From Bacteroidales bacterium UBA5537 (lineage in GTDB: Bacteria > Bacteroidota > Bacteroidia > Bacteroidales > Lentimicrobiaceae), in NCBI GenBank assembly GCA_002426025.1, contig DINP01000102.1, positions 58,189 through 112,430 of the forward strand: a stretch of 54,242 bases of DNA, in the 5' to 3' direction. Each line of letters starts with the position of its first letter. Position 1 is the first letter of the stretch. Shown piece after piece: positions 3,496 through 13,918 of the stretch. Under the pieces are notes generated by a model, which was given only the letters and a program-made list of their open reading frames with translations, had not been told where the DNA came from and did not search any database. The translations under genes and the position numbers were made by a program.

Positions 3496-6400
3496 TTATT
3501 TTGAAGTGTTTAAAAAATATTCAATTTTGAACTGTGAATCGAGATAGCTGGCATTTGCATCCAAATAATCAAATTCAATTTGCATAGCATCCTTCATATT
3601 CTGGAGGAAAGTGACATAATCAATTGCACCCTCCCGATAGGCTGTGATTGCCCCCTGCTTTTGTTCTTTGGCAACGGGCAGTGCCACATTGCGGTAGTAT
3701 TCCGTTGTGGTCAGCCATTTTTGATATTCTTCAAACAGGCTTTTATATGCAGCATTGATTTCCAATTCCTTTTGATGGAAATTTTCCCTGGCAATACTGC
3801 TTTCTATTTTTGCCGATTGTGTTTTGCCAGATTGTGAAACAAAAACAAGCGGGATGCTTAATCCGAACTGGTATTTATAAAACCCGGTTTGACTGCCTAT
3901 TTTCTGGCTCCCATATTCGGCGCTAAATTTGGGCAGGTATTCGGCCTTTGCCAGCTTAATCCTTGCATCGGCCAATTGCACCCTTTGTTCATAAAGTTGC
4001 AATTGAGGGTGTTGATAAATCGAATCCAAAGGTAAATATCCCGGAACGCCTGCATCTTTAATAGAATTATCGTCGACCGTAAAGACGGTATCACTAACAA
4101 GCCAAAGATTTAATTTTTGCAGGGCAATTTGGTAGTCCATTCTTGATTTTTCCTTTTGGACGGTGATTTGTCTGGCCTGGTTTGATGCTGACAAGTATTC
4201 AAGCTTTGACGTGGCCTGGGTCTCGTAGCGCAGCTTTGCAGCCCGTTCAAAATTCCTGAAAACAGAATCGAGCTGTAAATAAAGCCTGTACCGGTTTTTA
4301 GCACTGTACACTTCTCCCCAGGCAATACTGACTTCGCGCACAAGCTCCAGTTCTGCCAGGTTAAGGGCAGTTTGGGAAATAGCTACCTGCTTGTCCTGCA
4401 TCTTTGATTTAGCCCCGATACTTAAAACATCAAATTCCTGCCTTGCCAAAATGGTATTATAGATGCCATTTTCAGTATGGTTACCAAGTTCTTCAGCACC
4501 GGTTGAAAATTCGGTATTCCCTATATCCCAAGCAGTTTTTTTCAAGGCTTCCTGGTTCTTGATTTCAAGTTGGGCTGCTTTTATCAACGGGTAATTAGTT
4601 TTTGTCCGGTTTACCGCCTCATTAATTGTAATCTGAGGCAGGGAATCCGTTTCCTGTGCCTGTGTTTTTGCAGGAATGAGCGATATGCCAAGGCTCAAAA
4701 ACAACAGGATAATTAGCGGAGCATTAGGCGCAGAAAAGCGTCTTAGTTTCCTTCTTTGTGTGAATGCTTCAACCAAAGCATACAAAACAGGAATTACAAC
4801 CAACGTAAGGAGAGTAGCACTAAATAAACCACCGATTACCACAGTTGCAAGAGGACGTTGTACTTCTGCACCTGCTGAACCTGAAATTGCCATAGGCAGA
4901 AACCCTAACATTGCAGCGGTAGCCGTAAGTAATATTGGTCGTAACCTTTCTTGTGTCCCAATGGAAATCCGTTCTATGATATCGGTGACGCCCTCAATTT
5001 TAAGCGAATTAAACCGACTGATGAGGACTAAGCCATTTAAAACAGCAACACCGAAAAGCACAATAAAACCTACGCCCGCAGATATGCTAAAGGGCATTCC
5101 TCTAATCCACAGGGAAAATATGCCTCCAATGGCAGCCAAAGGCACAGCCATGTATATCATCACTGTTTGGGGCAACGAATGTAAGGCAAAGTACAAAAGG
5201 ATAAAAATAAGGGCCAACGCAATAGGCAATACGATTGACAGTCTGTCTTTAGCACGTTGCAGGTTTTCAAATTCACCGCCGTAAGTGATATAATAACCGG
5301 CAGGTAATTCGAGTTGTTTATCCAGTTTTTGTTGGATTTCATTTACTACCGATTCAACATCCCTTCCTCTGACATTTACTCCAACATAAATCCTCCGAAA
5401 AGAGCCTTCCCTTGAAATTTGCATTGCCCCGGGCTGGAAATTTATCTCGGCTACTTCCTTAATAGGGACTTGTTTCCCGTTAGGCAGGTCAACATATAAA
5501 TTTCTTAAATCTTCAATGCTTTTCCGGTGTTCTTTATCAAGCCGGATAACCATGTCGAAACGCCTTTCGCCTTCAAAGATTACGCCTGCGCTACTTCCGG
5601 CAAAAGCCGCGCTGACATACCTGTTGAGTTTGGCAATATCCAAACCGTACTGGGCTATTTTTCTCCGGTCATATTGTACGGTCATTTGCGGTAGCCCGGC
5701 GGTCCTTTCAAGGGTTACATCTTCCGCACCAGGTACTGTTTTTATTATCTCCTCTATTTTCTCCCCCTTTTCAGAGAGCACATCCAAATCTTCGCCAAAT
5801 AACTTAACCGCGACATCTTCCCTTACTCCTGTTAAAAGTTCATTAAAGCGTAACTCAACAGGTTGGCTAAATGTAAAATTAAGGCCAGGCAGATGAGCCA
5901 GTTTTTCCCTGATTTTTTCTATTAGTTCCTCTTTTGTTGATGCAGAAACCCATTTGCTTTTATCCTTTTCAAGAATAATAAAGCTATCGGTAAAGTCAAA
6001 GCCCATTGGGTCGGTTGGGATATCGGCAACACCAATTCGGGCACAAACTGTTTTTACTTCCGGAAAGTTTGCCATAATAATATTCTCAATTTCCTTTTCC
6101 CTATCAATTGTTTCCGACAAAGAACTTCCCGGACGAAGAAAAGCTTGCATGGCTATGTCCCCTTCATCGAGGCTTGGGATAAATTCGCCCCCCATACGGG
6201 TAAAAACAAAAACTGCGCTTACTAATATCGATATAGCAATAACGAGGGTGACAGCTTTACGTTTTAAGGCCAAAAGAAGAATAGGATTATATGCAGCATG
6301 AATCCCGTTTAATAGCTTACTGCTGAATCTTTCTAGTAAATTCTCGAAACGGGCGAACCAGTTGTTTTGATTTTTCGTTGGTTTCATTATGATAGACGAA

Positions 6401-7899
6401 ATCATAGGAACATAGGTAAGGCAGAGCAGTATTGCTCCAAGTACGGCAAACCCGAATGTGAAAGCCATTGGTTGGAACATTTTGCCTTCAACCCCGGTAA
6501 GAAAAAGTATCGGTGCAAAAACGATAAGGATAATTAGTTGCCCGAAAAATGCGGAGTTCATCATAGTACTTGAGGCATGGTATGTAAGTTCATCCATTTG
6601 CGCCTGACCAAATTTTCCTTTTCCTTCCTTCACCCTTTTCTCAATTTCATGTACCGTGCCTTCGACTATAATTACCGCACCATCTACAATGATACCAAAG
6701 TCAATCGCCCCAAGGCTCATCAGGTTTGCCCATACACCAAAAACTTTCATTAAGATAAAAGCGAACAACAGGGACAGAGGAATAACCGAAGCTGTAACCA
6801 GTCCCCCACGAAGACTTCCTAACAAAATGACAAGTACGAAAATGACAATAAGGGCACCTTCCATCAGGTTTCTGCTGACTGTACTTGTTGTCCGCTGTAT
6901 TAATTCGGAACGGTCGAGAAAAGGAGCAATTTCCAGACCTTTGGGTAATGTCTTTTGTACTTCGGCAATACGAGCTTTTACGCTTTGTATCACTTCGTTG
7001 GAGTTTTCGCCTTTCAGCATCAAAATCATACCCCCAACGGCTTCGTGTCCTTCCTGCGTGAAGGCGCCATATCGAACCTGACTGCCAAAATGAACCTGTT
7101 CAGCCACATCGCCAATTAATATCGGTATCCCATTTTCGTTTTTTACCACGATATTTTTTATATCGTCCAATGACCTGGCCAAGCCTTCGCCCCGTATAAA
7201 ATTTGCCATGTGGTCTTTTTCGATATAAGCTCCACCGGTATTGACATTGTTGTTTTCCAATGCTTCAAAAACCTCTGTAATTGAAACACCCATGGCGTTT
7301 AATTTATCGGGGTTCAGGGCAATTTCATATTGTTTAATATTCCCTCCAAATGAATTTACTTCAACGACACCGGGGATTAAAGCCATTTGACGTTTTACAA
7401 TCCAATCCTGAATGGTACGTAATTCGGTTGGGGTATATGTAGTGTCATAAACGGCTTTAGGTTTTATGGTGTATTGAAAAATCTCCCCTAAACCTGTTGT
7501 AATAGGACCCATAAACGGTTCGCCAAACTGAGTAGGTATTTGGTCTTTTACAGCGTTAAGTTTTTCCTGTACGACCTGCCTGGGCAAATAGGTGCCCATG
7601 TTGTCTTTGAACACAATGGTTACTACCGACAAGCCAAACCGCGACACTGAACGTAATTCAATAACCCCCGGCAAATTTGCCATGGCCAGCTCCACGGGAT
7701 AGGTGACAAATTGTTCGATGTCAACCGTAGATAAATTCTGTGAAACTGTAATTACCTGCACCTGATTGTTGGTAATATCCGGGGTCGAATCAAGGTTGAC
7801 TGTTTTTAAAGAATAAATACCTGCTCCAATTAGGGCAAAAAGCATCAGGCTGATTATGAATTTATTCTTTATTGAATAAGATATTATTTTGTTTATCAT
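3496..7899 (-). CDS. czcA: CzcA/CusA heavy-metal RND permease fused to a C-terminal TolC-like outer-membrane factor
   Basis: DSTPDITNNQVQV, SLGAIDFGIIVDGAVIIVE, ERLRPILLTA, QRPLATVVIGG; ~1050-aa RND part followed by ~400-aa OEP-like region (YLPKFSAEYG). Confidence 0.95.
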   Translation of the reverse strand: MINKIISYSIKNKFIISLMLFALIGAGIYSLKTVNLDSTPDITNNQVQVITVSQNLSTVDIEQFVTYPVELAMANLPGVIELRSVSRFGLSVVTIVFKDNMGTYLPRQVVQEKLNAVKDQIPTQFGEPFMGPITTGLGEIFQYTIKPKAVYDTTYTPTELRTIQDWIVKRQMALIPGVVEVNSFGGNIKQYEIALNPDKLNAMGVSITEVFEALENNNVNTGGAYIEKDHMANFIRGEGLARSLDDIKNIVVKNENGIPILIGDVAEQVHFGSQVRYGAFTQEGHEAVGGMILMLKGENSNEVIQSVKARIAEVQKTLPKGLEIAPFLDRSELIQRTTSTVSRNLMEGALIVIFVLVILLGSLRGGLVTASVIPLSLLFAFILMKVFGVWANLMSLGAIDFGIIVDGAVIIVEGTVHEIEKRVKEGKGKFGQAQMDELTYHASSTMMNSAFFGQLIILIVFAPILFLTGVEGKMFQPMAFTFGFAVLGAILLCLTYVPMISSIIMKPTKNQNNWFARFENLLERFSSKLLNGIHAAYNPILLLALKRKAVTLVIAISILVSAVFVFTRMGGEFIPSLDEGDIAMQAFLRPGSSLSETIDREKEIENIIMANFPEVKTVCARIGVADIPTDPMGFDFTDSFIILEKDKSKWVSASTKEELIEKIREKLAHLPGLNFTFSQPVELRFNELLTGVREDVAVKLFGEDLDVLSEKGEKIEEIIKTVPGAEDVTLERTAGLPQMTVQYDRRKIAQYGLDIAKLNRYVSAAFAGSSAGVIFEGERRFDMVIRLDKEHRKSIEDLRNLYVDLPNGKQVPIKEVAEINFQPGAMQISREGSFRRIYVGVNVRGRDVESVVNEIQQKLDKQLELPAGYYITYGGEFENLQRAKDRLSIVLPIALALIFILLYFALHSLPQTVMIYMAVPLAAIGGIFSLWIRGMPFSISAGVGFIVLFGVAVLNGLVLISRFNSLKIEGVTDIIERISIGTQERLRPILLTATAAMLGFLPMAISGSAGAEVQRPLATVVIGGLFSATLLTLVVIPVLYALVEAFTQRRKLRRFSAPNAPLIILLFLSLGISLIPAKTQAQETDSLPQITINEAVNRTKTNYPLIKAAQLEIKNQEALKKTAWDIGNTEFSTGAEELGNHTENGIYNTILARQEFDVLSIGAKSKMQDKQVAISQTALNLAELELVREVSIAWGEVYSAKNRYRLYLQLDSVFRNFERAAKLRYETQATSKLEYLSASNQARQITVQKEKSRMDYQIALQKLNLWLVSDTVFTVDDNSIKDAGVPGYLPLDSIYQHPQLQLYEQRVQLADARIKLAKAEYLPKFSAEYGSQKIGSQTGFYKYQFGLSIPLVFVSQSGKTQSAKIESSIARENFHQKELEINAAYKSLFEEYQKWLTTTEYYRNVALPVAKEQKQGAITAYREGAIDYVTFLQNMKDAMQIEFDYLDANASYLDSQFKIEYFLNTSK

Positions 7900-7911
7900 T
7901 TCATCTTTATT

Positions 7912-8406
7912 TTATTTGTTAGAAACTTGCTTTTGTTTTTCTGCTTTTGTTTCATAGTAATTTTTAAAATTTCGTTCGTTTTTAAAATATACCAACTCCG
8001 GCTTTCCTCTTTCCTTAAGTCCAATAATTGCAACCGATTTATTAATTGAATCACCTGAATATGCATCAGGAGTTATTGCAACCTCTCTGAAATGCTTTAC
8101 GAGATGGTTGAAACATTCCTGACTACAGAAATAATAAATTTTGTCCTCGAAAACCGCTTTGGTGCTTTCATGAATCTGCAGGATATCCCCATCCATACAT
8201 ATCCAATTCTTAGGTACTACTTTGCCATACCAATCCATTTTACGCCAGGTTAACCTAGTGTCACACCGATAGGTATAAAAAATAAGAATTGATAATAAAC
8301 ATAGAAAAAGGATGCTGAAACTTATCAGCATAGTTCTGTTAAATTTTTTGTCGTCAAGCTTTTGCTTATCAATAAGCTGTTGCTTGCTTAATCTCTTCTT
8401 TTTCAT
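7912..8406 (-). CDS. Membrane-anchored TRASH/YHS-type metal-binding protein
   Basis: One TM helix, then C-x(21)-YYFCSQEC, a TRASH/YHS-like Cys motif. Confidence 0.7.
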   Translation of the reverse strand: MKKKRLSKQQLIDKQKLDDKKFNRTMLISFSILFLCLLSILIFYTYRCDTRLTWRKMDWYGKVVPKNWICMDGDILQIHESTKAVFEDKIYYFCSQECFNHLVKHFREVAITPDAYSGDSINKSVAIIGLKERGKPELVYFKNERNFKNYYETKAEKQKQVSNK

Positions 8407-8476
8407 ACTTAAAAGATTAAGTGATACTATTTCCGATAAAATACTCTATCGGATTAATAAGAAAATCAAAAAGAAA

Positions 8477-8875
8477 TTAAACAGTGGCGGGAGGTGCCCT
8501 TGATGAATGGTTGGTAAGGAATATTAGCTTATGCGGAGAGAATATGAAACAATGGGTAAAGTTTACCTCATTGAGTTTTGACACAAAATCAAAATCTGTG
8601 CTGATGCCAAAAAGGTCGAGATTGAAATTTGATAAAGGAGCTGAATGAATACCTAAATCGCTTCCCTTTTCCGAAATAATAAGATTAAATGCATGACAAT
8701 GCGAATCCGGTTTTTCATTGGGACTATCGGTATTGGAAGTTTTACATTCTATGTTCTCTGGATGATCTTCGACAGTATCGAAATGATGATGATGGGGAAT
8801 AACAGCATGGGAAAGAATCATTATCCCCGCAATGAGGATAAGAAATTTGCTTGTATGTTTCTCCATTAATATCAT
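8477..8875 (-). CDS. Small His-rich exported/membrane protein (DUF6769-like), typical upstream of Bacteroidota czc operons
   Basis: Hydrophobic N-terminus followed by HAVIPHHHH, DSHCH, and C-terminal RAPP. Confidence 0.7.
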   Translation of the reverse strand: MILMEKHTSKFLILIAGIMILSHAVIPHHHHFDTVEDHPENIECKTSNTDSPNEKPDSHCHAFNLIISEKGSDLGIHSAPLSNFNLDLFGISTDFDFVSKLNEVNFTHCFIFSPHKLIFLTNHSSRAPPATV

Positions 8876-8907
8876 GTTATCAAGACTTTATTCTAGCAAT
8901 ACAACGT

Positions 8908-8915
8908 CAAAAATA
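8908..8915 (-). promoter_or_regulatory. Bacteroidota -7 promoter element for the czc operon
   Basis: Minus strand TATTTTTG matches TAnnTTTG, ~33 nt upstream of the 8875 start. Confidence 0.55.
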
Positions 8916-8927
8916 CTAAATTGTTGA

Positions 8928-8942
8928 TGCAACCGGGTTGCA
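8928..8942. promoter_or_regulatory. Candidate operator palindrome TGCAAC-N3-GTTGCA
   Basis: Perfect 6-3-6 inverted repeat between the Fur-like stop and the czc promoter, overlapping the expected -33 region. Confidence 0.65.
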
Positions 8943-8945
8943 AAG

Positions 8946-9359
8946 TTACTTTTTGCAATTGGAGCAGACTCCTTTTACTACCATATTTACGCTTTCAAGG
9001 GAAAAATTATTGGGTAGGCTAATTGAAGGAATTGGAAAATCATTTAAACAAAGGGTCTGATTGCATTTTGTGCAAAGAAAATGAACATGCAGTTCTTCGG
9101 GCATACATTCGCAAGTGTCCTGGCAAAGTGCATATTTTACCGTTCCACTCCCGTCGTCGATACTATGAATAAGTTTGTTCTTTTCAAAAGTTTTGAGTGT
9201 CCTGTATAATGTGGCTTTATCTACTTTCTCAAATTTATGTTCTAATTGAGGCAAACTAATAGCAGTTTTTTGCTCGATTAAAACTTGCAATACCAACTCT
9301 CGCATAGCGGTTGGTTTGATGTTTTTCGAGTTGAGTTTGTTGTCTATTTCTTTCTTCAT
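8946..9359 (-). CDS. Fur-family transcriptional regulator
   Basis: KPTAMRELVL, DKATLYRTLKTF HTH, HVHFLCTKC and GVCSNC CxxC motifs. Confidence 0.92.
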   Translation of the reverse strand: MKKEIDNKLNSKNIKPTAMRELVLQVLIEQKTAISLPQLEHKFEKVDKATLYRTLKTFEKNKLIHSIDDGSGTVKYALCQDTCECMPEELHVHFLCTKCNQTLCLNDFPIPSISLPNNFSLESVNMVVKGVCSNCKK

Positions 9360-9387
9360 TTTTAATTTCCTCAGTTTGTTTAAAGCT

Positions 9388-9395
9388 CAAAAGTA
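9388..9395 (-). promoter_or_regulatory. -7 promoter element for the Fur-like gene
   Basis: Minus strand TACTTTTG (TAnnTTTG), 29 nt upstream of the ATG. Confidence 0.6.
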
Positions 9396-9636
9396 ACAAT
9401 TATGTACCGGTGTGCAGTAAGAATTTATGAGATCTTATAAGCTTTTGGGTTGCGCGTTGGCTTAAGGGGGCTTGGCAAAGTGCTGCAATTTGGGTTTGCC
9501 TTTATTGCAAAAAAAAATCATCAAGGTTTGCACTGGACTGTAATAAATGCATGCCTTTTTTCTCCTCGTTCAGACGCTAAGGATTTGGCTGCCGTTCAAA
9601 CAAACCCTGTTCCCCCCTCCGCCATTTAGCACTCTG

Positions 9637-9673
9637 CTCCCCTCTCCGCCCAGAAGAGGGGTCGGGGGTGAGG
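9637..9673. repeat. REP-like GC-rich palindromic element (CCCCTCTCC..AGAGGGG.CGGGGGTGAGG type)
   Basis: ctcccctctccgcccagaagaggggtcgggggtgagg; CCCCTCT/AGAGGGG stem plus GGGGGTGAGG tail, resembling a dispersed repeat I recall near DUF559 nucleases; only one copy in this window. Confidence 0.55.
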
Positions 9674-9677
9674 CAAG

Positions 9678-9704
9678 AAAAACAGCCCGGCATCACCGGG
9701 CTGT
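9678..9704 (-). terminator. Intrinsic terminator of the 9727-10659 gene
   Basis: ACAGCCCGG-tgatg-CCGGGCTGT followed by TTTTT on the minus strand. Confidence 0.85.
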
Positions 9705-9726
9705 CAATCTACAATAATTATCCAAC

Positions 9727-10659
9727 TCACGCTTTCCCCATCACTCCGTCGGCTTCGGTTTCCTCTCCTGTCACAACCGAAATATCTTCCAGTTCAAGGC
9801 TTTGGTAAGAATCCAGGATGCAGGTAATAGTATGCATACCCGGTGCAACCTCATCAAAGAAATAATCACCGTTCTCATCGGTAGTGGTAGCCTCTTCAAC
9901 CCCTTCCATTTCCACAATCACATTCTGTAAACCCTCTCCTGTTTCCGAATCGGTAATATTGCCAAAAATCATCCCGGTAGTAGCATTGGGTTCAACACCT
10001 TTCTCATTCCGCTTTCCTCGTCTGTCAACAATTACGCGGGCAGTAACATAGGCATTAAAATACTCTTTGTCGGTGTTCTTTATCAGGTTCATTGCAACAT
10101 CCATTTTTTCATTAAGCAATTCGCGTACATTTGCCACATTCTCTTTCAGTTCCTTATTAATTGCAGAACGACTGGCAATATCCATTCGTGGAGCCGAAAG
10201 CAGCGTCGTATAATCAATAATCCTGTCCTTAAGCCCGTCAGGAGTAATTGCCTGCCCACGATAAGGGGTAAGAGCTTCCGCAAGTCCATAAGCAAGGTCT
10301 CTCACCCGGGTCGAAATATCAATAAGCTTATCTCCGCCTGCTCTGCGCAAATCTGAATAACACAAATCAACCTGCGCCTTCAATTCAGGTCTGTTTTCCA
10401 TACCCGCGTAAAGCAACAACTGGCTTATCATCTCATCAGCACCAGCCTCAAGCAAAAGGCGTTTAGCCTGTTTTTGCGCTGCATAACGGTTTTCAAGAAC
10501 CAGTAGTTGGTTCTTTTGATGATGCAACGCGATAAGGTCCTTCAGTTCCGCATTCAGTTCAATGCCCTTTGGCACCAATGCCAGATTCTCAGCATACCTG
10601 TCCTGTACATCAGCGACTGCTTTTGCCATAACAATAACATTCATTTCTTTTGTCTTCAT
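9727..10659 (-). CDS. Hypothetical protein: ~215-aa alpha-helical N-domain plus C-terminal carboxypeptidase-regulatory-like (Ig/CnaB-type) domain, no signal peptide
   Basis: YxxARxIVD motif ends the helical part; GMIFGNITDSETGEGLQNVIV...TTTDENGDYFFDEVAPG is a CarboxypepD_reg-like signature; has its own promoter and terminator. Confidence 0.8.
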   Translation of the reverse strand: MKTKEMNVIVMAKAVADVQDRYAENLALVPKGIELNAELKDLIALHHQKNQLLVLENRYAAQKQAKRLLLEAGADEMISQLLLYAGMENRPELKAQVDLCYSDLRRAGGDKLIDISTRVRDLAYGLAEALTPYRGQAITPDGLKDRIIDYTTLLSAPRMDIASRSAINKELKENVANVRELLNEKMDVAMNLIKNTDKEYFNAYVTARVIVDRRGKRNEKGVEPNATTGMIFGNITDSETGEGLQNVIVEMEGVEEATTTDENGDYFFDEVAPGMHTITCILDSYQSLELEDISVVTGEETEADGVMGKA

Positions 10660-11067
10660 AAACTCATTTTTTTGTTAAACATTAAATTAGTTAGAAACTA
10701 TAATCTCATCAACGATGATTCAACCCAGCCGGTATCCGCAACTCTCAGTCATCTAACCAACAGGCCGCAAAAACCCGGCATAAAACAACTCATGCATCAT
10801 GCCGTCTCACAACAGCAAGCAATACAAAAAGAAACTGTACGGTTTATTGCAGGCCTTATCTCTCTAAAATACAATCATCTAATAGCACAGCCCAATATGT
10901 CAAACCGGATACATAGAATTCAAACAATAAATGTGTGCGTGTAGCAATCAATTTAATATCCCGTACCATCGTATAAATCGCAGCATCAAACCTGCAAAAA
11001 GGTGGGAAACGATGGCATTAAATTGTATAATACACCTATCACAAAAATAAAGAACATAGATTTACAG

Positions 11068-11075
11068 CAAATGTA
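11068..11075 (-). promoter_or_regulatory. -7 promoter element for the 9727-10659 gene, implying a ~400-nt 5' leader
   Basis: Minus strand TACATTTG with TTG 18 nt upstream (11094-11096). Confidence 0.55.
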
Positions 11076-11268
11076 GGAAATAATCCTCCATACCAATAAC
11101 TCGATTCTGAAAAATAAATTGTGTTCCAACAAAAATTTTAATTGTAACAGTCCCACCAAGTAAAAGCCAATCTTTTCGCCCGTCCCCTGAAACAGTTTGC
11201 GCTCGTCCCCTGACGCGTGCTACCACTTAAAAACAAAGATTTAAGGAGGACAAAAAATGTCTACTCAC

Positions 11269-11520
11269 TGTCCGCACCCTTCTACTGAAAGTCCGCACCC
11301 TTCTATGCAAGGTCCGCACTCATTTCCATGAGAGCCGCATCTATTTCCGCATTGTCCGCACCCTTCTACGCGAGGTTCGCACCCTTCTACGTATGGTCAG
11401 CACCCTTCTACGTATGGTCCGCATTCTTCTACGCTAGATCCTTACCCTCTTACTAATGGTCCGCACCATTCTAATCACGGTCCGCGCGCTTCTAAGTCTG
11501 GTCTGCAACTTAGGTTAGTC
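11269..11520 (+). repeat. Tandem array of 12 degenerate 21-bp units, consensus GGTCCGCACCCTTCTACG-NNN
   Basis: Units start at 11269, 11290, 11311, 11332, 11353, 11374, 11395, 11416, 11437, 11458, 11479 and 11500; matches to the 18-nt core are 16,16,13,11,17,17,17,16,12,15,15,9; no indels. Confidence 0.95.
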
Positions 11521-11650
11521 TAAGGCTGAGCCTCAGAATTTAATATCAATTCAGGCACAGCCTGGTTCGGCCTCTGATAGAAGCCCGGTTTTCTTTCGCA
11601 TTCCTTATGAAAATTAATGCGTTCCAGGTCTGTTAATTTAAAAAAATACT

Positions 11651-11658
11651 TACCTTTG
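11651..11658 (+). promoter_or_regulatory. -7 promoter element of rpsA
   Basis: TACCTTTG (TAnnTTTG), ~120 nt upstream of the ATG. Confidence 0.75.
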
Positions 11659-11776
11659 CACCCCGGTTTGGCCGGCGCCTTTGCTTTTGATTTTCAGAGG
11701 TGTTCCTGACTGTTCAAACCTGTAATTAACCTTAGTATTAACCGGGTTCCTTCGCGGAGCCACAAAGAAGAATTAA

Positions 11777-13918
11777 ATGACAAACGACGAATTAAACGTC
11801 AACGAAGAATCAACCAATGCCGAAGGCCTTGCTAACGAGAACGTTAATGAGCAACCTGAAGTTGTTGAATCTGAAGTTAAAAATGAAACTGAAGCTGTTG
11901 TTGAAGAGACAGTTGCTGATGTAGAAGAAACTGTTGAAGCAGTTGATGCACCTGTTGCTGAAGAAGCTAAAATTGAAACACCTGAAGTTATTGAAACACC
12001 TGAAGTTGTTGAAGCACCTGTTGCTGTGACAGCTAAAGTTGAAACTACAGTTGAAGATGAAGATGATGATGATGAGCCAACTGTTGAAAAGTTGAAATCA
12101 AAGCTGGTTGCACAGGTTTCATTAGAGAATTTCGATTGGGATGCTATCGGTAAGAAGCATGAAAACTACACTGCTGACGAGCGCACCAAGCTTGAAGGTC
12201 TTTATGATAAAACCCTAAGCTCAATAGTTGAGCACGAAGTTATTGATGGTACTGTAGTTGCCATGAATTCGCGCGAAGTTGTTGTTAATATTGGTTTTAA
12301 ATCAGATGGAGTTATTCCACAGTCGGAACTCAGATATAATCCCAAACTGAAAGTTGGTGACCAGATTGAAGTATATGTTGAAAGCCAGGAAGATATGGGC
12401 GGACAGCTTATTCTCTCACACAAAAAGGCTCGCATTCTCCGTTCATGGGAGCGCGTTAACCAGGCTTTCGAAAAAGAAGAAATTATTAATGGTTATGTTA
12501 AATGCCGCACCAAAGGTGGTCTAATCGTTGATGTATTCGGTATTGAAGCATTCCTCCCGGGTTCACAGATTGATGTGAAACCAATCCGCGATTACGATAT
12601 CTACGTTGATAAGGTAATGGAATTCAAAGTTGTGAAAATTAACCAGGAATACAAAAACGTGGTTGTTTCGCACAAAGCGCTTATTGAAGACGAACTAGAG
12701 CAGCAGAAAGCCGATATCATCAGCAAACTTGAAAAAGGTCAGATTCTTGAAGGTACCGTTAAGAATATCACTTCTTATGGTGTATTTATTGACCTTGGTG
12801 GTGTTGATGGTCTGGTCCATATTACCGACCTTTCATGGGGACGTATCAATCATCCGGAAGAAATCGTTCAATTGGATGAGAAAATCAAGGTTGTTATCCT
12901 TGACTTTGATGAAAACAAAAAACGGATTGCCCTTGGTCTCAAACAACTTACTCCTCATCCATGGGATTCGCTCAGCGAAACTGTTAAAGTGGGTGATGAA
13001 GTTAAAGGCCGCGTAGTGGTAATTGCCGATTATGGTGCATTTATCGAAATAGCTCCTGGTGTTGAAGGTCTGATCCACGTTTCCGAAATGTCATGGTCGC
13101 AGCATCTGCGCACCGCACAGGATTTCCTTAAAGTCGGTGATGAAGTTGATGCAGTTATCCTTACACTCGATCGCGAAGAGCGCAAGATGTCGCTGGGTAT
13201 CAAGCAACTCATTCCTGATCCATGGACAAACATCAAAGAAAAATATCCGCTCAACTCCAAACACGAAGCTACAGTCCGCAACTTTACCAACTTCGGTATT
13301 TTTGTTGAACTCGAAGAAGGTGTTGATGGTCTCATACACATCTCTGACCTTTCTTGGTCGAAAAAAATCAAGCATCCTGCTGAATTCACCAAGATTGGTG
13401 AGAAAATTGAAGTTGTGGTACTTGATGTGGATGTTGAAAACCGCAGGTTGAGCCTTGGTCACAAACAGTTAGAAGAGAATCCTTGGGAAGTTTTTGAAAC
13501 TGTATTCTCAGTTGGTTCGGTTCACAAAGGAACCATTACCAGCGCAAGCGATAAAGGAATGGTAGTTTCCCTTCCATACGGGGTAGAAGGTTTTGCACCG
13601 CTGCGTCATGTGGTTAAAGAGGATAACACCCAGGCTAAAGTTGAAGAATCACTCGACTTCAAGGTTATTGAATTCTCGAAAGATAACAAGAAGATCATTC
13701 TTTCACACTCACGTATATTCCAGGAAGTAGCTTCAAATGAGCGCGCCAAGGAATCTGCATCGAAAGAAAGTGCAGAAAATTCAACCAAACGTGCTGTTAA
13801 AAAACTCAAGGACAACCTCGAGAAAACTACACTCGGCGACCTCGAAGCACTTGCCAATCTGAAATCAGATATGGAAGAGTCAGAAAAAGCGGCCGCTAAG
13901 AACAAAAAATCAGAATAA
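11777..13918 (+). CDS. rpsA: 30S ribosomal protein S1 with ~115-aa acidic N-terminal extension
   Basis: Repeated S1 domains (FLPGSQID, YGVFIDLGGVDGLVHITDLSW, YGAFIEIAPGVEGLIHVSEMSW, FGIFVELEEGVDGLIHISDLSW) and C-terminal TLGDL. Confidence 0.98.
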   Translation: MTNDELNVNEESTNAEGLANENVNEQPEVVESEVKNETEAVVEETVADVEETVEAVDAPVAEEAKIETPEVIETPEVVEAPVAVTAKVETTVEDEDDDDEPTVEKLKSKLVAQVSLENFDWDAIGKKHENYTADERTKLEGLYDKTLSSIVEHEVIDGTVVAMNSREVVVNIGFKSDGVIPQSELRYNPKLKVGDQIEVYVESQEDMGGQLILSHKKARILRSWERVNQAFEKEEIINGYVKCRTKGGLIVDVFGIEAFLPGSQIDVKPIRDYDIYVDKVMEFKVVKINQEYKNVVVSHKALIEDELEQQKADIISKLEKGQILEGTVKNITSYGVFIDLGGVDGLVHITDLSWGRINHPEEIVQLDEKIKVVILDFDENKKRIALGLKQLTPHPWDSLSETVKVGDEVKGRVVVIADYGAFIEIAPGVEGLIHVSEMSWSQHLRTAQDFLKVGDEVDAVILTLDREERKMSLGIKQLIPDPWTNIKEKYPLNSKHEATVRNFTNFGIFVELEEGVDGLIHISDLSWSKKIKHPAEFTKIGEKIEVVVLDVDVENRRLSLGHKQLEENPWEVFETVFSVGSVHKGTITSASDKGMVVSLPYGVEGFAPLRHVVKEDNTQAKVEESLDFKVIEFSKDNKKIILSHSRIFQEVASNERAKESASKESAENSTKRAVKKLKDNLEKTTLGDLEALANLKSDMEESEKAAAKNKKSE

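Follow-up and report, generated by a model that had tools for sequence, protein, structure and literature searches.

A gene for a helical protein and a phased 21-bp repeat array as parts of one widespread, apparently undescribed bacterial module

The 54,242-nt stretch of DNA analysed here (the window; contig DINP01000102.1, positions 58,189 to 112,430 of the forward strand, assembly GCA_002426025.1, Bacteroidales bacterium UBA5537) comes from a Lentimicrobium-type Bacteroidales organism. On its minus strand it carries a gene for a 310-amino-acid protein (9727..10659) and, on the 5' side of this gene, an array of contiguous 21-bp units. The available evidence supports that gene and array are two parts of one widespread, apparently undescribed module. 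That they form one functional unit had been proposed in the initial annotation of this DNA, and homologs of the helical domain of the protein are indeed strongly tied to 21-bp arrays (53 of 60 loci) in neighbourhoods that are otherwise unrelated. The novelty suggested at the same time is likewise upheld, as no prior description of an association between the helical gene and a 21-bp array was found in the full-text literature, in which nothing came closer than other repeat families. Pfam, NCBIfam, PHROGs, PADLOC and Rfam contain neither of the two parts. It is tentatively proposed, at somewhat less than an even chance, that the module's own protein binds the array at a series of DNA sites set two helical turns apart.

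Close homologs of the protein are scarce (10 proteins among 5.8 billion). A 21-bp-period array was found 5' of the gene in all five other close-homolog lineages with fetchable upstream DNA. Locus L009 carries a homologous array, the array unit is AAGGTGCTCATCACCAAGAGT in L003/L004 and ACCGGGAGCATAAGGCGGAAG in L006, and L011 also carries a 21-bp-period array. The array of L007 is degenerate and AT-rich; it was missed by Tandem Repeats Finder and is plain when laid in register. Among 1.84 billion representative proteins, a search with a helical-domain profile gave 3,303 matches at E <= 1e-3 and 1,019 at E <= 1e-10, the approximately 3,300 family members being clusters at 50% identity. Most of them are stand-alone proteins of 215-240 amino acids, and some, of about 300 amino acids, have the same C-terminal domain as the window protein. 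In ten family members checked, no Pfam match was found over the helical domain, and ten clusters looked up were 'hypothetical', unnamed, named from the C-terminal domain or, in one case, labelled with a stray annotation. The open reading frame (ORF) in the window matches the A3 profile of the domain at 1.5e-70, and the window holds one family member.

The association was measured as the strongest self-match lag in about 1.2 kb upstream of the gene, and a repeat search near homologs had been set beforehand as the test. The first set comprised 35 loci (the window locus, its close homologs and the fetched relatives). Of these, 29 had 21 or 42 as their strongest lag, versus 15 of 86 window segments as background, and in 28 the lag-21 score lay above the highest background value. 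Gene body and downstream control DNA of this set showed no bias to lag 21 or 42. The second set of 25 new loci takes in Verrucomicrobiota, Acidobacteriota (Pyrinomonadaceae), Ignavibacteriota, Chitinophagaceae, Prolixibacteraceae and Lentimicrobiaceae, and its strongest lag was 21, 42 or 63 in 24 loci. Pooling both sets yields the count given above, with a period of 21, 42 or 63 upstream of the gene in Bacteroidota, Verrucomicrobiota, Acidobacteriota and Ignavibacteriota. Across these four phyla, arrays are still present beside genes whose proteins share only about 25% identity, and genomes carry several paralogous modules each. The median array length is 256 bp (range 126-482 bp), nearly all arrays keep the period exactly, with 0% indels, and units match one another at 67-90%. 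Besides the helical gene, all-against-all ORF clustering of 36 loci revealed no conserved neighbour gene; the neighbours of close homologs vary and include rpsA, UvrD, ftsZ/YqeY and others.

In the window, the twelve 21-bp repeats annotated earlier correspond to about 12 phased, in-register units at 11262..11512 on the minus strand, with the gene-strand consensus GCGTAGAAGGGTGCGGACCnT. Tandem Repeats Finder reported a period of 21 with 0% indels, in 10.7 copies at 11270-11494 and a further 2.5 copies reaching 11507. The core GGTCCGCACCCTTCTAC occurs 8 times at <=3 mismatches, versus 0.04 expected. Compared with the 94%-identical relative L009, the array is 70% identical with the same period, the coding sequence 90%, the promoter together with the early leader 89%, and the spacer that separates array from promoter 27% in its non-conserved part. 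This poorly conserved spacer (11072..11261) holds two copies of CGTCCCCTGA, at 11181 and 11204, which had been listed as a 10-bp direct repeat belonging to the unit. The two copies are present, but they are at chance level (21 of 100 shuffles equal them at 1 mismatch) and are not kept in L009, and the repeat forms no meaningful part of the unit.

The faster turnover of the array than of the coding sequence in this comparison would suit a functionless hitch-hiking minisatellite, its period kept by unequal crossing-over alone. Higher-order repeats of 42, 63 and 84 bp are also typical of satellite dynamics, and some loci lack a detectable array. At the extent-detection threshold no array was found in five first-set loci, namely L028 (with 278 bp of upstream DNA only), L038, L040, L041 and L042, while L032 showed only an 84-bp stretch and, of the loci counted positive, scored lowest at lag 21 (0.44); in the second set, L068 was without a lag-21, 42 or 63 signal. 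Nevertheless, a neutral array should decay or vanish, yet arrays are retained to the protein divergence given above and in four phyla, and with the same period everywhere. Conserved versus free columns within the arrays also indicate selection, and a minisatellite origin of this kind is thus considered very unlikely.

Per 21-bp unit, a median of 6 columns are near-invariant and 4 are near-random. Because unequal crossing-over copies whole units, this column-specific pattern points to selection on a core. Column conservation contains a harmonic of about 10.5 bp, its autocorrelation falling to a minimum at lag 5-6 and reaching 0 again at lag 10; in combination with the exact two-turn period, such a pattern would be expected if one face of B-DNA were recognized. 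The core varies from one paralogous module to another, and array likeness is clear only above about 60% protein identity, where the similarity lies on the same strand in 93% of pairs. Since cores both differ between paralogs and track protein divergence, a recognition factor specific to each module may be argued for. Frequently, A and B units alternate to give a 42-nt super-period. A universal core motif or a fixed polarity over all arrays was rejected, as alignment of position weight matrices (PWMs) finds likeness only among close relatives.

A period of 21 nt also equals 7 codons, as would be required of a present or recent coding heptapeptide repeat, for instance the Pro/His-rich MSTHCPHPSTESPHPS... 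on the plus strand, divergent from the gene. At the start of the window array, AAGGAGG-N7-ATG opens an ORF of 24 codons (11258..11332, plus strand), one frame is open to the array end bar a single TGA, and some arrays, read in one frame, give Pro-rich heptads. Coding, regarded as most improbable, was rejected after translation in six frames, counts of stops and an entropy test for period 3. Of 46 arrays, one alone gave a period-3 variability signal, in many arrays every one of the six frames contains stops, and strand and frame of the 'best' reading are inconsistent between loci. Moreover, a repeat unit without a stop leaves several frames open by construction. The ATG is absent in L009, which has further in-frame stops, and the short ORF in the window is taken as fortuitous. 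As a side observation, the plus-strand frame at 11258-11520 meets one TGA and is then open to a TAA at the array end, with a Pro/His-rich heptad (GPHPSTx), and the in-frame stops checked in L009 and L082 are likewise TGA.

The gene at 9727..10659 was delimited by the ORF call and its product characterized by Pfam scan and structure prediction. As first annotated, the 310-amino-acid protein has no signal peptide, its N-terminus being a predicted helix instead, and the suggestion that it is a signal-independent exported cargo found no support. Its predicted layout comprises an elongated all-helical domain (residues 1-210), with the C-terminal motif Y..AR.IVD..GKR, a disordered linker (211-224) and an acidic transthyretin-like/CarboxypepD_reg domain (229-307); the Pfam scan placed the CarboxypepD_reg match at residues 231-304 with E 3.7e-11. 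In the AlphaFold2 model, a helical bundle around a 56-residue helix is followed by the disordered linker and a transthyretin-like β-sandwich, with a mean predicted local distance difference test (pLDDT) score of 84 for the full length and 88.6 for the N-domain alone. The β-sandwich resembles the transthyretin-like domain of carboxypeptidase D (Foldseek, E 6e-8), and the full-length model obtained Foldseek matches solely via this C-terminal domain. The first ~225 residues gave zero matches in Pfam, PHROGs, NCBIfam, PADLOC and PDB sequences, and scans of PHROGs and PADLOC with the window protein returned no match.

A Bacteroidetes-type promoter lies on the minus strand at 11042..11071, with a -33 element TTTG at 11068-11071, an 18-nt spacer and a -7 box TATTTTTG at 11042-11049, and it is kept in L009. 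Metatranscriptome contigs of a close relative (runs X25 and X26) that cover the leader stop at 11035 and 11036, that is, 6-7 nt downstream of the -7 box. Judging from these ends, expression of the gene begins about 376 nt 5' of its ATG. The leader annotated at about 400 nt accordingly spans some 376 nt (10660..11035, minus strand), as delimited by the RNA contig ends and the L009 alignment, and the promoter annotated beside it stands just upstream of the contig ends. In metatranscriptomes of the relative, RNA depth over the coding sequence was 3-10, versus 46-336 for rpsA. In those other Bacteroidota loci that have a strict -7 box, the box stands between array and start codon, on the gene strand in 13 and on the opposite strand in 4. 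At the other end of the gene, directly 3' of the stop codon, the annotated terminator was recovered as an intrinsic-terminator-like hairpin with a T-run at 9681..9705 (minus strand), with an 11-pair stem, 7 GC pairs and then TTTCTTGCCT; this terminator-like sequence would end the gene's transcript.

The 5' half of the leader lies within a conserved block that is 89% identical to L009. By eye, the leader at 10760-11035 (minus strand) contains long stretches near-identical to L009, above the overall conservation of the coding sequence, and the block holds a CCATCGT...ACGATGG inverted repeat; it is possibly a regulatory leader RNA. A search of window positions 9300-12000 against Rfam 15 gave no match to leader or array at E up to 1.

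With the transcription start of the window lineage at ~11035, the array occupies the stretch some 230-480 bp upstream of it, and among the metatranscriptome contigs of the relative none falls on the window array. Both observations count against an RNA-level module, in which the array would be transcribed (from its own promoter or within a long 5' region, in some lineages) and its unstructured 21-nt units bound, or processed and bound, by the helical protein, in parallel to tigRNAs in TIGR-Tas or repeat RNAs in type III toxin-antitoxin systems. In its general layout, with one helical protein next to a tandem array, the module does recall ToxIN and TIGR-Tas (PMC12045711), the 42-nt super-period with its alternating units is frequent, and acidic or neutral proteins are able to bind RNA via local patches. 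Several arrays stop just 21-90 bp short of the start codon, so at least part of them could be in the mRNA. Furthermore, the sole matching contig from a food-fermentation metatranscriptome covers the proximal array of a Limibacterium locus (L082:1546-1781) up to -20; this contig, unstranded and at a depth of 2.3, leaves the coding sequence uncovered, and it suggests that array transcription is possible in some lineages.

The minimum free energy of the arrays is no lower than that of column-permuted arrays on either strand (median z ~0), and Rfam gave no match on the arrays of 20 and a further 12 loci. Terminator-like hairpins between array and gene were found in 1 of 52 loci by a strict definition and in 5 of 50 by a lenient one, with none in the window, and terminators beyond the arrays were not above background on either strand. 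The variable blocks are diverged copies of one another and not unrelated spacers, and neither a Nop nor a ToxN-like fold was found. PWM scans of array units against the coding sequence of their own module and of others detected no match to the former, sense or antisense, when coding sequence alone was scanned (p = 0.5). An array acting as antisense or mimic of its own mRNA was also rejected, the apparent signal being due to extra array units in the gap. An RNA-level module is therefore judged unlikely.

Under the preferred reading, in which the array is bound as DNA by the module's own protein, each array would present 10-20 recognition sequences, spaced every 21 bp or two turns of B-DNA, with one module-specific core per unit on one face of the double-stranded DNA. 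The adjacent protein is the obvious candidate binder because it is encoded by the only module-specific gene, and it would occupy the sites cooperatively. The predicted bundle, about 80 Å long versus 71 Å per 21-bp unit, would be of similar size to its site. As the array is located upstream of the gene's own promoter, the simplest consequence would be control of expression or local nucleoprotein assembly; binding may thus result in autoregulation of the gene or in an assembly upstream of the promoter. We infer that the array acts as DNA, that the adjacent protein binds it, and what effect binding would have.

Several findings weigh against this proposal. Foldseek found no significant fold match for the helical domain (best E 0.1 in PDB and 0.3 in BFVD), and no DNA-binding fold or motif was detectable in it. 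The domain is near neutral, with a median isoelectric point (pI) of 6.4 across the family, and the whole window protein is acidic (pI 4.7). The distance from array end to ATG has a median of 228 bp and a range of 21-1,106 bp, unlike that of a classical operator. Co-divergence of array and protein is equally expected under plain co-inheritance, the L082 contig covers part of an array, and the RNA data that place the transcription start consist of assembled contigs from related organisms, not stranded reads from the window organism. The same lack of a DNA-binding signature would suit a cis DNA element read by another factor, such as a host nucleoid or transcription factor, or acting through intrinsic DNA shape or curvature as an upstream promoter element. 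The position of the array upstream of the promoter and its two-helical-turn phasing with the 10.5-bp harmonic would agree with that explanation as well. Paralogous modules in one genome differ in their cores, however, which a shared factor or pure shape would not require. The association also spans four phyla with different transcription machinery, and promoter spacing is highly variable. Such an outside reader is hence rather improbable.

The limits of the module in the window were drawn from its neighbours. On the right, blastn of window positions 7000-13000 against 80 rpsA loci placed the limit in the rpsA promoter region (11608..11650). The ten nearest Lentimicrobium-type genomes are homologous to the window only from ~11608-11650 onward and lack the module upstream of rpsA, where they have other co-directional genes; such a comparison of related genomes had been suggested in the initial annotation. 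On the left, beyond the terminator and before fur, a GC-rich palindromic element (9637..9676) consists of CCCCTCT-N9-AGAGGGG followed by GGGGTGAGG. It had been annotated as a repetitive extragenic palindromic (REP)-like element of the unit; the palindrome is there, but it is single-copy in the window, the REP label is unverified, and the element is probably not part of the module and of no meaning to it. In two close-homolog loci (L009:2926-5400 and L007:1712-3824), the module is followed by two Por_Secre_tail genes (type IX secretion), mutually homologous at 24-30% identity; in the window, fur and metal-resistance genes take the place of this flank. As annotated, no recombinase was found in the unit among ORFs and Pfam matches. 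The suggestion of a non-autonomous cassette fits the patchy genomic distribution, but no mobility genes or ends were found, though element ends and target-site duplications were not searched for. With tblastn, no phage or plasmid homologs of the distant family member P0019 were obtained.

Other features were observed around these loci. An Acido-Lenti-1 RNA (Rfam, 43.8 bits, gathering score 37) is located at L030:1673-1719, about 250 nt distal of the array and on the gene strand, a single case among the 29 distinct loci that were compared with Rfam. About 2 kb downstream of one Salinivirgaceae module, at L045:5192-5318, is a group II intron D1-D4 domain (78.5 bits). In the window, rpsA has an acidic N-terminal extension (11762-12075, plus strand) built from coding repeats of 18, 19 and 21 bp (Tandem Repeats Finder); in a related metatranscriptome contig this extension carries in-frame indels, with 9 and 3 nt missing and 30 nt inserted. 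The 1,467-amino-acid ORF at 3496-7899 (minus strand) apparently joins an efflux pump of RND (CzcA) type to a C-terminal half that resembles an outer-membrane factor.

Several times before, a conserved tie of a protein family to a repeat array has been the first sign of new biology, as with CRISPR-Cas, type III toxin-antitoxin systems and TIGR-Tas. If the helical protein reads its own array, the module would provide a new nucleic-acid-recognition fold and a natural library of cognate protein-site pairs, which would be useful for studies of specificity and as orthogonal parts. If it does not, the module is still a widespread unexplained regulatory architecture.

Among known systems, iteron and partition systems such as Rep-iteron origins, ParR-parC of R1 and pSK41, and TubR-tubC have element-specific tandem direct repeats spaced at about 1-2 helical turns (iterons ~22 bp) immediately upstream of the gene for the binder. 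Their binders coat one face of the DNA cooperatively and also autoregulate the gene. The phasing at two helical turns and the place upstream of the gene match those of the module described here, a likeness that compares geometry only. In contrast, no Rep (winged-helix), ribbon-helix-helix or TubR-like fold is found here, the protein being an all-helical elongated bundle by prediction, and the 36 loci hold no ParM, TubZ or ParA NTPase or other conserved partner gene of the kind found with partition centromeres. The present arrays are longer (10-20 units) and more degenerate, and the modules are chromosomal, with several paralogs per genome; the tblastn search with P0019 gave no sign of them in plasmid or phage collections.

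Type III toxin-antitoxin systems (ToxIN, CptIN and TenpIN) have 2-6 near-identical units of 34-45 nt with pseudoknots, and their toxin gene, which encodes a ToxN/AbiQ endoribonuclease, is preceded by a terminator. They share with the present module a short direct-repeat array directly upstream of a single gene and a self-contained two-part organization. Here, however, 10-20 degenerate units of 21 bp are found, with no terminator before the gene and no folding signal, and the transcription start of the window lineage lies downstream of the array. No ToxN/AbiQ or CptN/TenpN family match was obtained (Pfam, NCBIfam, PADLOC), nor a significant PDB fold.

Like CRISPR arrays, the present ones are regular, linked to a protein gene in many phyla, and evolve faster than the protein. 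Unlike CRISPR, they consist of contiguous 21-mers with no structure of identical repeats between unique spacers, no cas or defence families were detected (Pfam, PADLOC), and there is no palindromic repeat or folding signal.

The comparison with TIGR-Tas relies on two reports (PMC12045711; bioRxiv 10.64898/2026.09.09.750476), according to which the 36-nt units consist of two alternating repeats with box C/D nucleotides that flank two unrelated spacers, the Tas protein has a Nop domain, and array transcripts are processed to unit-length RNAs that this protein binds. In both cases, conserved (8-12 nt) and variable (~9 nt) blocks alternate, arrays poorly conserved in sequence stand by a compact, largely helical protein, and the 42-nt super-period is near the 36-nt tigRNA unit. 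For the window protein, the Pfam scan found no Nop family at E up to 1, no Nop5 or TasR was among the top 50 Foldseek PDB matches listed, and 0 of 413 matches reached E 0.001. The window unit is without a RUGAUGA or CUGA (box C/D) motif, the period is 21 or 42 and not 36, the variable columns are diverged copies rather than independent spacers, and none of the assembled metatranscriptome contigs lies on the window array. Type III toxin-antitoxin and TIGR-Tas thus each fail on the defining features tested. It is conceivable, with confidence somewhat short of even, that these modules constitute a new repeat-associated class in at least four phyla, each member reading its own fast-evolving array either in a sequence-programmed nucleoprotein filament formed on DNA via a new DNA-binding fold or in a new protein-repeat-RNA particle, and with a regulatory, structural or defensive function unrelated to CRISPR, TIGR-Tas, type III toxin-antitoxin and plasmid iterons. 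Members of the family are proposed to be recognized by an A2/A3-profile helical domain together with a 21-bp-period array within ~1.2 kb on the 5' side of its gene, both of which are present in the window.

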